From Ramazzottius varieornatus (taxonomy: Eukaryota; Animalia; Tardigrada), in contig BDGG01000001.1 of the NCBI GenBank assembly GCA_001949185.1, positions 6,485,591 to 6,549,590 of the forward strand: a stretch of 64,000 nt of DNA, read 5' to 3'. Positions 32,405 through 50,500 of this stretch are shown piece after piece. How positions within the stretch are numbered: the first letter of the stretch is position 1; the number at the start of each line of letters is the position of its first letter. The notes under the pieces are model-generated. The model made no database searches and had not been told where the DNA came from. It was given only the letters and a program-made list of their open reading frames with translations. The position numbers were made by a program, and so were the translations under genes.

Positions 32405-33597
32405 CTAGCCAGAAAACAAATCATTACGATCGTCGAAGATATCTTTCTTTGGGGCAGCATTCTGTTCACCCGATCCACTGGACTTGACGTCCGCTATTCC
32501 AACGTTGAAACATTGATAAGCTTCATCCAACGTAAGGTAGTATGCCGCAGAATCCGCCGAAATTAGAGCTTCGATTTCATGTAAGATAACATGAGAGCTT
32601 GGTCGGCTCGTAATATCAGTTATCCAGCACTGTTCCATTATTGCATACCTAAAACAAGATTTTATTGCATCATAGTCAGTTCGTACGGATGAAACCCCAC
32701 AGAATATTTCTCACATGCTATTCGGTGCGTACCCGGTTTCCCGAGATGGTTTCCGTCCATAAGCCACTCCATAAACTCTTTCACACGGCCGCTAATAGAC
32801 ATGTCGGCATACGGAGCCTTACCCAGAGTAAAGATCTCCCATAAAAGAACGCCGAAAGACCAGACGTCACTACTGCCAGTGAAACTCAGTGTTTGTATTG
32901 CTTCAGGCGCCATCCACCCAACCGGTAACGCAGCCTGGAGAAAGTATTGGCATACTGTGAAGTTCCTAGTTTGTCTGGGAACGCTTAGTACGAATCACGA
33001 TGGAACAATCCCCTTACTTGGGCCGTGTTGGTCAGGATGTAATCCTTCTCGCGAACTTTCGCCATCCCGAAATCCCATATCTTTACCGTTCTATTCTTCG
33101 TTATCAAGACATTGCGCGCGGCGATGTCTCTGTGTATGATGGATCGAGAAGAGAGGTGTGCTAGACCGCGCCACGCTTGGTATGAGAAACTCATCAGATT
33201 CTTGGTGGACAGATCCTTCTCCATGAATTTCGATATCGTGCTGGAAGCTGTGGAGCTTCTTCGGAACTCTGGATGGACACTGCACCCACTGTCGCCGTTA
33301 CCCAAACAATCCACGTCACCATCCGTGTTCAGCAGGTTCACAAAGTGCGCAAACGGTGGACGTCGATCCTGTAGATACGTCAATAACGAACCGTGCTCGC
33401 AAAGCCCCAGTAATAACGCAGGAAAATCTGCAACAAAGATTTCTAAAATTAAAATTCACTCGGAAACTACATGGTTAAAATTAATCTTATTCGAAAATAT
33501 ACCAGATATCGTTACACACAAGAGATTCACTACGTCCTGGTGCTGCCCGGTTTTGAGCATGACGCGAATTTCATCTTCGTACAGTTGGTGCTTGTAG
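32405..33597 (-). pseudogene. Receptor tyrosine kinase catalytic domain (PDGFR/VEGFR/FGFR-like), frameshifted, subdomains I-II missing
   Basis: [69 protein letters not shown]. Truncated at ~33597 where Polinton sequence begins. Confidence 0.88.
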
Positions 33598-34188
33598 CAG
33601 TATACGTGGCCAGATAGCGGGCAATTACCCCGCCCCATTTTGTACCCTATAACTAAATCGGGGAAGTTGTTGGAGGGTAATTAGTGCGCCTGTGCTGGAG
33701 TGAGAAGTCGATTTCTCAGATTGACTTAAACCTACCTGTTAGCTTGAGCTCTCTCCGTCTCTGTAGCTGGTGGACCGGGACGTTTCAGCGACCGAACATA
33801 AAATCATGGACGCAAATCAAGTTGCGTCCACTAAAATTTTTGCCATACCCGGGTTTTGACCGAGCTGTTACAGAGTTACTCGTTGGGTGCGGCAGTCGCT
33901 CAGTGTTTATAATCCAAGTTACTTGATCATTTCAGTCTCTTGTGTTTCGGTAAACGTTACAGACTTCTTTACGTGCCCGTGTCCAGGATGGTCAATTACT
34001 TGTTTGTGTACTGTATCGCTCTGGTATCTTTCAAAACTGCTTCGGCTTGTATTGAGGGATGCTTTTGCACGAAATCCGCCGGCTGTCATCGATTGTCTTG
34101 ATCGCGGTCTTCACCAGTTGAAGCTGGAAAACGCAACGTTTGATAAGCGAGTGTATCATATTCTGGCCGCTTACAATTATCTCTTATC

Positions 34189-35290
34189 TTGCACAAGTTG
34201 TTAAACAGAATCTACCATGACCCAAAATCTGTCGGTTCGTTCGGTGGTGTAAGATTGTTGTATCAGGAGTTGAGTAAGAGGAGCAAGTGTCCTGATTTGA
34301 AAAAAGAGTTAAAGCCTGGCTGAAAAAGAACCCTGTCTATACTCTGCATGCACCCGTTAGACGAAATTTTCCGAGAGTGCCTATTGTGGTTGATGGACCT
34401 GGAAATCAGTGGCAAATTGACCTGATCGATGTTAATTCAATCAAGGACCAGAATGATGGTAACGGGTTTATTTTGTCGGCAATTGATGCATTTTCGAGAA
34501 AAGCCTATCTTCAGCCGATCAGCAACAAGACAAAAGAGGCTGTTTTGGCCGGCTTTAGGCAGCTGTACGAGGCGTCAGGAGAGAATATTCAAGTATTGCA
34601 GAGTGATTAGGGTACGGAGTTTTACAACGACAGGTTCCAGCAATATATGCGTCAGAAAAATATTGAGCATTTCTCAACACTGGGCTCTGAGACCAAGGCA
34701 GCGATCGTCGAGCGCTTTCATCGAACAATTATGTAACGGCTGTATCGATACTTTTCATTAGTCGGTAACAAACGCTACGTTGAAGTCCTGCAAAGTTTCG
34801 TGGACCCGTACAATGAAACACCACACAAGACACTGGGCTTCGTTGCACCCAACAATGTGACCGAGAATAACAAGGAAGAGATAAGAAGGCTCTGTATGGA
34901 ACTCACAAAGTCATCTACGCATTTCGGCGTTTGTCCAAGGAGAGGTTTGTACCGGAGCAGTTGGTGCGTGTATCGCTGCAGAAGAAAAGTTTCGAAAAGG
35001 GATTTTTGCAAGGTTGGAGTTCGGAAGTGTATAGAGTTTTATCTGTGGAAAACACCGAGGACGGAGCAGTGCTTTGTTTATTGAAAGGTCTGAAGGAAGA
35101 CGCGGTGAAAGGCCGGTTTTATCCGTGGCAGCTTCAGTCAGTTAATTACACCGAAGACGAGCTCGTTCACGTCCAAGAACTCGACCGGAAAAGGGGAAAA
35201 GTACTGGTGCATTACGTTGGCTGGGATAAAAAATTCGACGAGTGGGTAACGACTAGAAAGTTTAACGGCATGATCAAGAATGTCGCTTAA
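34189..35290 (+). pseudogene. Polinton retroviral-like (rve) integrase with C-terminal chromo-like domain
   Basis: IYHDPKSVGSFGG..WLKKNPVYTLH..WQIDLID (D), AIDAFSR, QSD*GTEF (D), IVERFHRT (E), YNETPH, FEKGFLQGWS, VHYVGWDKKFDEWV; at least two stops and two frameshifts. Confidence 0.9.
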
Positions 35291-47825: not shown

Positions 47826-48600
47826 TTACTTCTTCGTCCTCTTGGCCGTAATCTTGACTTCCGCTGTCTCGCTGTCGAATCCGTTCTTGCGCTTCGGTTC
47901 AACTGTGCGCATGAGTCGCGGACCAGACAACTCAAACTCGTCCACCAACCTGAAGACAAGAAGTTACAAGTTAGCTCACAGTACGTTGGTAAAAGAAATT
48001 GGAGCGCGTAGCTAATATCGAAATGGAATGGAGTCACACTCACTTCTTATCCCCTATGGCATTAGCATTGGCGGTAGTGGCGAAGGCTGCGGCTTGCTGG
48101 TATTGGGCCTGAAAGACATTGTATAGTTTGAACACGCCATTCTATATTATGGTTGAAACCCAAATTTTCACTGTCCAAAGACTTAAGCGTCTTACGGGCT
48201 GATGTTCTCGATTTTAAGCGGTTCTTTCTTGATTTCGATCAGCATATCGGTCTTCTTGTTCCGCTGGTCTTCCTCGCGACTGCAGAAAAGAAATCGAAAG
48301 CATTAACCGAATGGTAAAAATTTACCTAATTTCGATCTGAGGCGTACTTTTCTGTGTCCCAGTGATGGACCACTTCGGCGAAGTCGCGCCTTGAATCGAG
48401 CGGCATCGTAGTCGCTGAGCGTTGGAGACGGCGTCCGTGGTGTCGGGATTTTCAGCAAGTCCACCCAGTCCTGCTTCTGCGTGTTGTAGATTGGGGGAAG
48501 GATCGGCGGGGCCGGGAACCCCTGCCCATGCTGTTGAATGAACCCCTGGGTTTGGTTGTATGTTTGCACCACTTGACCTCCAACACATGGCGGTTCACGT
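47826..48600 (-). other. Spliced ORF of unknown function immediately upstream of pPolB
   Basis: Canonical GT-AG introns near 48280-48325, 48110-48194 and 47950-48043 (GTGAGT..CTAAC..TCAG). Last exon LVDEFELSG..KRTKK* ends in TAATG with the pPolB ATG. Frames are not fully consistent. Confidence 0.45.
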
Positions 48601-49656
48601 TTATCATTTCCCGGCTGTTGATTAAATGTCTGTTGTGTAGGCCGGTAATTGACCTGCTGCAGCTGCTGGGTAAAATTTCGCTGTTGTGGCTGATTGAACC
48701 CCTGCTGCTAATTGAAAAAGTCACGTTCCCGATTATCGGACTCATGATACAGTGGGGGAGGACGATTGACCATACGAGGCGCACTAAAGCCCGGCTGGAT
48801 GTCACTAAAAGGCTCACCGGCCTGCTGGTTTTGTTTACACGGATTTGGAAAAGCACAACGGATGGTTCGTCGGTAACGAGGAAGGAGAAATCTGGCAAAA
48901 TAAGATGCGAGGAGCTTGGAAAAATAAGCGGTAATAGAGCTTGCAGCGATCACGTAAGAAACCGTACACTTCGTTTACTTCGACAAGGCTGGAAATCCGA
49001 ACTTTGACTGAAACTTTCAAAGCAACGACAGACATGCCAGAAAATCAAACTGATATGAAACATTCCAGAGTTGGAGCTCTTTTATATGAATGCTTGACTC
49101 GGGAAGGTGGGTGTGATCGATTTCGAGTGTTGACTACTTGAAATGTTCCATCTTTGTTTTACTACGCTGTCGGGGTGGTGCTTTTATTCCATCCTTCTGC
49201 CGATCATATTCCAGCTCAGGTCATGAACCTGTTGATGAACTTGTTCTCACAGAAATTACGACCTGTCGACTCATTGTCATAACGCTCACGACAGGTGATT
49301 CGACACCGCCCATAGGTCATGAACCTGTTAATGATCTTGTTTGCACAGAAATCTCAGCCTGTCATCCCATCGGCACAAAGGCTCACAGCAACTGACCAGA
49401 CTTTTGTCACTTGTTATCACTCCACGGTAAATTATCCGGCAATTGACACGTTTCGTTTCACATGAATTCTCAGTGTTCACCGTTTCAACAAAAGAATGCT
49501 AAAAGTACATAAATTTCTCAAGTAAAATCCACATCAAACGTCAGAAGCATCTGTAAACAAAAGCGAAAGAGAAATCTGAAGGACTGTACAGATCTGTCTG
49601 GGAAAGAAGATACCAAAAACTTCTACAATACATGAGTAAACGTCCGGGTCAGCACA

Positions 49657-50500
49657 CTATTCCGACTCAATCGAGTCAGTCTTGTCAATGCGCGACGCGT
49701 AAACAGCATTCGGGTGAACGAGACTACGGGGACCGTAAAATTCCAGTGGCTGGTCCTTGCGAAACTTTGGACAAGCGAAGTACACTGCACCGACAAAAGC
49801 CGCAACAAAGATCACGCTTGCCACAACTCCCACTGCCACATACACTGCGACCTTCCACGTTGGATCTAAAATTACAAAAATCCAAATCGACAATATTTAG
49901 AAACGTTTGAGAAAACGAAAAACACCTTGAGGATCTTCGGAGGCTTAGCTGACATTATCCACACCGCTTTCATTGATGTATGGAAATATGGCATTAGTCT
50001 TGATGGAGGTGGTTGAGCGAGTTGTTGGTGCGGCGGTTGTAGTTTGAGCGACGTTGGTGCTACTGTACAAGCATCCTCCTGGACTTCGTAGCTTCGCCAG
50101 ATGCGCTGGTGCTCTGCACTGCAACTGAAAGCGTCTGATACGGGCTAGATCATAAACCGCTTTTTCCACCATTTCGTGAGTCTTTGCCTGTCGATTTTCC
50201 CCCATAGGCTAGTTTCTCAGTCACAGTCCACAAAGGGATGTTACGGTTGCACACAGAGGCTTCTCTACCACTGCATCCGCTTGTGCATTGACACCGCTTG
50301 GAACAAAGAACGCGTCTTTACGGCAGGTCTTGACAGAATGCGAGACGTTACCTTCACAGGACCAGGAACAGCTGGGTTTACAGCAATCCTAATCCCAAAT
50401 GGCCCTACCTTCCAGAGTAACTTCAGTAGACCCTCTTTGAATTCCTTGTCCAGAGGTCGGTTGGTTATTCATCGCTGAATCTGCCTCAACGGCGTTCGTT
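49657..50500 (-). pseudogene. GH45 endoglucanase-like ectodomain, Thr-rich stalk and transmembrane helix (probable 5' half of the RTK pseudogene)
   Basis: W-D-*-DCCKPSCSW...SHSVKTC at ~50400-50325; after a frameshift SGCSGREASVCNRNIPLWTVTEKLAYG; then TTTAAPTTRSTTS; next exon carries TM VAVYVAVGVVASVIFVAAFVGAVYFA followed by basic KFRK. Confidence 0.7.

Follow-up and report, generated by a model that had tools for sequence, protein, structure and literature searches.

In the window (the whole stretch of 64,000 nucleotides of Ramazzottius varieornatus DNA that was analyzed), the remnant of a tyrosine kinase gene lies at positions 33595-32405 of the minus strand (PF07714, E values of 1e-21 and 8e-20). 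A preliminary description had placed a kinase without subdomains I-II beyond a Polinton and co-oriented with a GH45 domain, and this is what was found. The remnant comprises four exons separated by GT-AG introns and carries a single frameshift: an exon truncated at the left end of the Polinton and running from helix C to beta-4 (33503..33595); an exon with an insert, HRDIAARN, and DFG (33018..33427), so that the HRDxAARN and DFG motifs of the tyrosine kinase domain are present; an exon covering subdomains VIII-X with the frameshift near 32733 (32715..32934); and a last exon with subdomain XI, the tail, and the stop (32405..32648). The remnant begins at helix C, exactly at the end of the element, and subdomains I-II are missing. 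The upstream sequence LVIGYKMGRG was considered as subdomain I and rejected; it lies inside the repeated end of the element and has no juxtamembrane match. A TM helix or juxtamembrane region of its own joined to the kinase was not found, the nearby TM helix being that of another gene, and no GH16, PAN, LRR-N, or juxtamembrane remnant was present anywhere in the window. The locus is dead, a pseudogene; it has dynamin, ARID4-like, and RhoGEF neighbors.

Sequences between the kinase and GH45 remnants

The element between the two halves (33596..49412, with its left end near 33596) is a decayed Polinton/Maverick, as had been proposed. Its identity is confirmed by an integrase with chromodomain (34296-34607, a PF00665 match below its cut-off), an adenovirus-type protease (37854-38441, PF00770), and pieces of PolB (41577-42922, PF03175). 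It shares with other Polinton/Maverick elements the chromodomain integrase, the adenovirus-type protease, and the protein-primed PolB, but differs from them in being decayed, in having no right end, and in likely carrying an intron-containing membrane-protein gene. A right-hand inverted repeat and a target-site duplication were searched for and not found, and capsid proteins and a packaging ATPase gave no Pfam match among 148 ORFs. A hAT transposon is nested in the Polinton on the plus strand (43641..46509, PF05699 at 45919-46359); one DNA contig skips 43640-46510, i.e. the hAT stretch.

A Thr-rich stalk and a TM helix with a basic stretch had been assigned to the receptor. They are present at 50076-49657 of the minus strand but are not the receptor's: they form the 3' half of an LRRNT-labeled membrane-protein gene with its own stop (49659-49657), which belongs to a multicopy family (RvY_00102, RvY_01795, RvY_01862, and RvY_12114). 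Stalk, TM helix, and tail match residues 101-219 of the paralogues at 105-109 of 119 residues (88-92%). These paralogues are kinase-less proteins of 219 amino acids that share this C-terminus, and the spliced transcripts of the family pass the same stop into the 3' UTR. The stalk exon piece (49926..50076), which was recognized by its paralogue match and has an in-frame stop at 49947-49945, begins abruptly at the junction, and paralogue contigs part from the window at 50076. It is followed by a GT-AG intron of 60 nt (49866..49925), which splicing has removed from contigs of runs X5, X15, X19, and X20 but not in DNA run X2. The last exon (49657..49865) holds the TM helix, the basic stretch, a short tail, and the natural stop, its C-terminus being that of the 219-residue paralogues; the 3' UTR occupies 49413..49656, and spliced paralogue contigs extend to 49413-49546. 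In the portion of the PMC5034306 supplement that was covered, an integrase-like gene follows each of two LRR-TM paralogues at a distance of six gene numbers, matching the layout of the window. The LRR-TM gene likely travels with the Polinton as a passenger.

Beyond it, profile search and frameshift-aware alignment identified the N-terminal third of a GH45 domain as a pseudogene remnant (50201..50409, minus strand). The motifs read earlier from this strand were recovered: W-D-*-DCCKPSCSW with an in-frame TAG at 50391-50389 and, after a frameshift near 50281, SGC...PLWTVTEKLAYG, ending at 50201. The aspartate described as retained after the tryptophan is the Asp10 equivalent (codon 50388-50386). 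This residue is the base, not the acid; the Asp121 region is absent, so that of the catalytic dyad only Asp10 is seen. The HMMER check that had been suggested gave a PF02015 match in one frame of the fragment (E value of 3e-4), which at 21 bits falls short of the gathering score of 27 bits. Homology across the frameshift exceeds chance: frameshift-aware alignment with the Hypsibius GH45 domain scored 125 (27/62 residues identical), and 40 shuffles gave 30 +/- 3.7 with a maximum of 38. One DNA contig without differences spans the remnant, and its depth equals that of the contig on the kinase. Run X5 also covers it, at a depth of about 3, which may be DNA because the Polinton and the intron in its unspliced form are covered in X5 as well; no contig of runs X15, X19, or X20 covers the GH45 part, which says nothing on expression. 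For the 124 bp between the GH45 remnant and the stalk piece (50077..50200), all four alignment scores lay within the shuffle range, and neither the C-terminal half of GH45 nor RTK juxtamembrane regions nor the N-terminus of the LRR-TM protein gave a significant match. An apparent GH45 C-terminus near 50080-50120 was rejected, its score also lying within the shuffle range. Searching a word index with the fragment gave no match among 18 candidates, which is weak evidence; no Glyco_hydro_45 occurs among roughly 9,000 of the 19,521 genes of the PMC5034306 gene table, nor was there a match in 12 of the 27 supplements of PMC5531438.

An annotated GH45-headed receptor tyrosine kinase in Hypsibius

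A predicted tardigrade protein with both GH45 and kinase domains was found in Hypsibius exemplaris. The gene model OQV23253.1 comprises a PAN-like module, a GH45 domain (PF02015, 206 bits, residues 135-336), a TM helix at 366, and a tyrosine kinase domain (PF07714, 255 bits) with VAVK, HRDLAARN, and DFG, i.e. the ectodomain, single TM helix, and kinase of an RTK. Because this combination is annotated there, the idea of a GH45 receptor kinase in tardigrades was not refuted; of the ancestral GH45-stalk-TM-kinase layout proposed for the window, GH45, TM, and kinase thus have a counterpart, whereas the stalk and TM helix seen in the window are foreign. The database entry (OQV23253.1/A0A1W0X6X5) is labeled putative endoglucanase type K, Cellulase, which ignores the kinase. 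In OQV23253.1 as in the window locus, a GH45 domain precedes a tyrosine kinase, and both kinases belong to one tardigrade group. Unlike the window locus, OQV23253.1 is intact and includes a PAN-like module and a TM helix of its own; its kinase is not the orthologue of the one in the window.

The GH45 domain of OQV23253.1 was compared with Humicola insolens endoglucanase V (PDB 2ENG; E value of 8e-64). The catalytic dyad of the family is Asp10/Asp121 (PMC6509783). The family motifs and Asp10 are kept in both tardigrade sequences, and OQV23253.1 also retains Tyr8. The Humicola protein is a secreted, active enzyme; in OQV23253.1, however, Asp114 is replaced by Ser248 and the proton donor Asp121 by Asn254, so that the domain lacks the acid of an active GH45, and in the window the Asp121 region is missing. 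The loss of the catalytic acid in an intact protein favors sensing.

Origin of the two fragments

We consider the GH45 and kinase fragments to be the surviving ends of one GH45-headed RTK gene, with the stalk and TM helix foreign, at a probability of roughly 0.5. The halves have the same orientation and lie on opposite sides of the mobile block. Because the kinase remnant begins within an exon, at the end of the element, the 5' half of the kinase must originally have been located beyond the element. There, the co-oriented GH45 remnant is the first coding sequence that is not repeated, and it is the sole ectodomain remnant in the window. Heads are often swapped in this kinase group; LRR heads, for example, occur in two species on unrelated kinases (p-AU 8e-71).

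Nearly as well supported is the view that the fragments come from two genes juxtaposed by the Polinton and a deletion, which would have been either neighbors within a cluster of receptor genes or a GH16-type receptor and a cellulase encoded on its own. The window kinase is closest to that of RvY_11618, an RTK of R. varieornatus with a GH16-like ectodomain (55% identity over 289 residues; sister, 100/100), although the window contains no GH16 remnant. It is only 39% identical to the kinase of OQV23253, and a clade of these two is rejected (p-AU 1.6e-83). As to the check whether both halves match the same intact paralogue, they do not share a best-matching one. The GH45 remnant itself is no closer to OQV23253 (27/62) than to L001, an unrelated GH45 (34/61), and a tree of 11 rows built on a 72-residue fragment gives no resolved grouping with OQV23253. 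Decay is unequal: the kinase has 5 of 58 conserved sites altered, the GH45 remnant 9 of 26 (Fisher p 0.008), five of the nine falling in one run. Neither a linking sequence nor a target-site duplication was found. Stand-alone PAN-GH45 genes exist, L010 on an intron-bearing contig having an intact acid, and the GH16 receptors RvY_06815 and RvY_06820 are five gene numbers apart in the part of the gene listing covered. With two separate genes, on the other hand, a GH45 sequence would have had to come to lie, in matching orientation, next to a kinase that lacks its 5' part and belongs to precisely the group in which GH45 occurs in Hypsibius, and this in a window without an alternative ectodomain remnant. 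Sisterhood to a GH16 receptor, the absent middle, the lacking target-site duplication, and the stronger decay of GH45 leave linkage at about even odds.

If the fragments are the ends of one gene, a possible order of events, which we infer from the parts, sequence relationships, and residue changes described, would be as follows. A Polinton carrying the LRR-TM gene would first have entered the kinase at helix C. Later, a deletion would have removed the right end of the Polinton together with the 5' half of its LRR-TM passenger and, at the same time, the middle of the receptor (the C-terminal part of GH45, its own TM helix, the juxtamembrane region, and subdomains I-II), joining 50076 to 50077.

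OQV23253.1 might instead result from gene prediction having fused a cellulase gene with a neighboring RTK gene, in which case no GH45 receptor would exist. It is a single record, one predicted gene model in a cluster of one member, and the only GH45-kinase among 157 proteins compared. None of the 11 loci obtained in a metagenome scan with OQV23253 matched a kinase, and the ESM Atlas (clusters of at least 50) contained GH45 clusters and kinase clusters but none with both families. We regard a merger as unlikely. The layout is coherent, with one internal TM helix at a distance of 85 residues from the Gly loop (82-94 in most relatives), the GH45 acid is lost, as it is in the GH16-like heads, and the PAN-like module is homologous to modules of a related PAN receptor (E value of 7e-12).

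The clean split of a single GH45-stalk-TM-kinase gene by the virus, as first proposed, agrees with the order and orientation of the parts and with one contig of run X1 that bridges the GH45-to-stalk junction, but is very improbable given the kinase-less paralogues of the stalk-TM-tail and their transcripts; the arrangement seen is not that of a clean split, since it calls for a minimum of one subsequent deletion or rearrangement.

Possible sensing by a group of tardigrade receptors

OQV23253.1 belongs to a group of tardigrade RTKs with GH16-like, B-lectin, PAN, astacin, and LRR ectodomains, of which no description was found in the literature searched. Judged by its residues, OQV23253.1 most likely works as a sensor rather than in digesting cell-wall sugars. 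The putatively enzyme-dead GH45 domain would bind beta-glucan, e.g. cellulose derived from algae eaten as food or from the walls of microbes, and glycan binding would cluster the receptor and thereby trigger kinase signaling. The loss of activity, the ligand, and the role given here for the GH45 domain are inferences.

Insect GNBPs (beta-glucan recognition proteins) have GH16-like domains that have lost their catalytic residues and serve recognition. They differ from the tardigrade receptors in being soluble and acting in Toll signaling. Plant receptor-like kinases likewise place a glycoside-hydrolase, B-lectin, or PAN ectodomain on a single-pass kinase, and those of the G-type act in microbe sensing; their kinases, however, differ from metazoan tyrosine kinases, so that the likeness is one of convergence.

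GNBP and PGRP recognition proteins have not been detected in tardigrades (PMC7056985). We tentatively suggest, as a speculative reading, that tardigrades may possess a plant-like surveillance system in which a lineage-specific RTK group repeatedly swaps carbohydrate-binding or enzyme-dead heads (GH16-like, GH45, B-lectin, and PAN) and stands in for GNBP and PGRP, a horizontally acquired cellulase having perhaps been recruited twice, in Hypsibius and at the window locus. The pseudogene in the window matters only as possible evidence of this second recruitment; what is of value is the receptor group, a candidate system for sensing glycans. A GH45-headed member would be a probably acquired digestive enzyme turned signaling receptor, convergent with the plant receptor-like kinases. 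For the recognition of microbes or of polysaccharides in food by tardigrades, the receptor group provides named, testable candidates.

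GH45 and kinase remnants in the window

The GH45 (cellulase) motifs recognized in the preliminary description were present on the minus strand at 50409-50201. In the PF02015 profile search proposed for them, one frame matched with an E value of 3e-4, but its 21 bits fell under the cut-off of 27. Frameshift-aware alignment with a tardigrade GH45 gave 27/62 identities and a score of 125, as compared with 30 ± 3.7 (maximum 38) for 40 shuffles. The remnant carried one frameshift, near 50281, and similarity ended at LAYG (50201); the 124 bp beyond matched none of four candidate continuations. 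Directly upstream lay an element of high copy number that itself contains short repeats (50506-51400); it may have displaced the 5' exons of the GH45 gene. A tree of the fragment gave no placement for it, and a horizontal origin of GH45 is taken from the literature, not from a tree of the present analysis.

The tyrosine kinase remnant (33595 to 32405, minus strand) comprised four exons with GT-AG boundaries and one frameshift. It started at helix C, at the end of a repeated element, other copies of which start near 33595; a DNA contig spanned 32051-33629 with one difference. A 39-bp match (85%) at 31518-31556 to kinase subdomain IX (32825-32863) may be left over from a second copy of the kinase.

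The stretch that separates the two remnants contains ORFs for integrase, protease, and PolB of a Polinton, together with a nested hAT element. No matching pair of inverted repeats and no target-site duplication were found for the Polinton. A 62-nt unit occurred near its left end (33790-33865) and twice by the hAT element (46744-46874), always in direct orientation. The ORF profile scan of the window covered 148 ORFs, each of at least 95 aa. Host genes on the minus strand were a RhoGEF (582-1169), a 7TM receptor piece (12035-12936), an ARID4-like gene (14728-19957), and a dynamin (58980-61403); transposase ORFs of Mariner and hAT type, along with a region resembling HTH_psq transposases, were seen at 22024-24951 and 54905-57305.

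Stalk and transmembrane segment

The stalk and transmembrane (TM) helix (50076-49657, minus strand) had been taken as the receptor's own, an assignment that did not hold; they belong to a kinase-less LRR-TM family. The TM exon as query found one protein among 98 candidates, RvY_01795 of R. varieornatus. Its cluster, labeled LRRNT/LRRCT, consists of four proteins, 219 aa long in three cases and 159 aa in the fourth, and none of them contains a kinase. The window segment matched residues 101-219 of the three 219-aa paralogues at 105/119, 109/119, and 106/119 positions, with an identical last residue. Agreement at this level assigns the window to R. varieornatus or an extremely close relative. 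Contigs of four runs from four studies (X5, X15, X19, and X20), which are RNA by guess but nevertheless spliced, lacked a 60-nt intron and continued past the stop into a 3' UTR; this splice was not seen in DNA run X2. The spliced contigs diverged from the window at 50076, reading there as the paralogues' upstream residues. The 50076/50077 junction was spanned by one contig of run X1, the X2 contig having just 30 letters on the short side.

In the accessible part of the gene table of PMC5034306, RvY_00102 and RvY_01862 of this family are each followed, at a distance of six gene numbers, by an integrase or a gene sharing its best hit, and RvY_01795 stands among low-expressed hypothetical and mobile genes. 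RvY_00102 was expressed at FPKM 14-24. We infer that the LRR-TM gene was Polinton cargo or was co-duplicated with the Polinton; possibly the family as such is cargo. The stretch 49413-50076 belongs to an intron-containing, expressed single-pass membrane-protein family that appears to lie within or beside Polinton copies.

A GH45-headed kinase and its relatives

The foreseen combination of GH45, TM helix, and kinase exists as a single gene model, Hypsibius exemplaris OQV23253.1. A HMMER search with RvY_11618, a GH16-like receptor kinase, listed 150 representatives, and GH45 motifs were found in this one of the 157 proteins gathered. OQV23253.1 is 800 aa long; PF02015 covers residues 135-336 (206 bits) and PF07714 covers 449-735, a TM helix lies between them at 366, and VAVK, HRDLAARN, and DFG are all intact. 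Its N-terminal module is homologous to PAN domains of a related receptor. Relative to PDB 2ENG, Tyr8 and Asp10 are kept, whereas Asp121 is replaced by Asn and Asp114 by Ser. As the available text of PMC6509783 gives Asp10 and Asp121 as the catalytic dyad and links dyad loss to inactivity, the head is likely enzyme-dead, judged from its sequence.

Thirty proteins hand-picked among the hits were subjected to a domain scan. GH16 plus kinase was found in 12 (two being isoforms of one gene and two under the cut-off), B-lectin plus kinase in three, LRR plus kinase in two (one under the cut-off), and astacin, PAN, weak EGF/LDLR, GH45, and Ig in one each; seven were kinase only, and one was the LRR-TM protein. 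Species were named for 19 of 20 proteins looked up, all 19 tardigrade. The E-x-D-x-x-E motif was absent from all 10 GH16-like heads searched, one of them aligned to solved laminarinases. One of two astacin heads kept its zinc motif; thus, the heads of the group are not all dead. P0005, P0012, P0018, P0022, P0025, P0033, P0049, and P0070 belong to a tardigrade RTK group in which GH16-like heads without the catalytic motif occur alongside heads of B-lectin, PAN, astacin, LRR, and EGF-like type. For two GH16 kinases, the FPKM values in the accessible rows of the published gene table are <1 in the two leading columns and 11-50 in the four closing ones; going by the paper's text, and on an assumed column order, these are read as embryo and adult.

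In this kinase set, which is biased to kin of the query RvY_11618, kinases sorted by species with the minimum of two changes, and ectodomain type required seven changes versus a minimum of six. The GH16 head looks ancestral, the other heads having taken its place within lineages.

Linkage of the remnants and implications

The remnants are real, and their origin from one gene is unproven, with about even odds. In support, the kinase breaks off within an exon where the element ends, the co-oriented GH45 remnant is the first non-repeated coding sequence past the mobile block, and no remnant of GH16, PAN, LRR-N, or a juxtamembrane region turned up when the window was searched with profiles. Against it, the nearest kinase relative is RvY_11618 (GH16-like, TM, and kinase; 55% identity versus 39% to OQV23253), the two being sisters at 100/100 in a 29-row tree, a pairing repeated by a quick tree of 99 rows; a clade uniting the window kinase with OQV23253 was rejected. 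The GH45 remnant is also further decayed, with 9/26 conserved sites altered versus 5/58 in the kinase (p 0.008; five GH45 changes in one run). The rejection hurts linkage less than is apparent, because kinases sort by species and a clade of the LRR receptors of two species was likewise rejected. Since GH16 is seemingly ancestral, a receptor with a GH45 head at this locus would mean that GH45 was recruited a second time. An intron-bearing, AT-rich metagenome contig (L010) encodes a stand-alone PAN-GH45 with short introns and an intact catalytic acid (1331-2666); thus, a likely source module exists, and GH45 can occur unfused. Another metagenome locus (L009, 206-1130) has a similar PAN-like module ahead of a possibly expansin-like domain.

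Tardigrade GH45 itself is already known: the accessible text of PMC6509783 includes one sequence, weakly grouped with rotifer and chytrid enzymes, and leaves kinases unmentioned. The same silence on kinases holds for the available portion of PMC13084967, which screened tardigrades, and that of PMC8662651 on the holozoan tyrosine kinome mentions no tardigrade, hydrolase, or lectin. The GH45-kinase architecture can be seen in public annotations. A literature search largely outside subscription journals yielded no description of tardigrade kinases headed by GH45 or GH16 and no paper on accession OQV23253.1; the receptor type is real and apparently undescribed. The receptors resemble plant CHRK1 and G-type lectin receptor kinases, as these appear in the accessible text of PMC5485988, but are not members of those families. 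Because GNBP and PGRP homologues were not found in tardigrades, according to the available part of PMC7056985, the tardigrade receptors are candidate sensors of glycans or microbes that can be put to the test.
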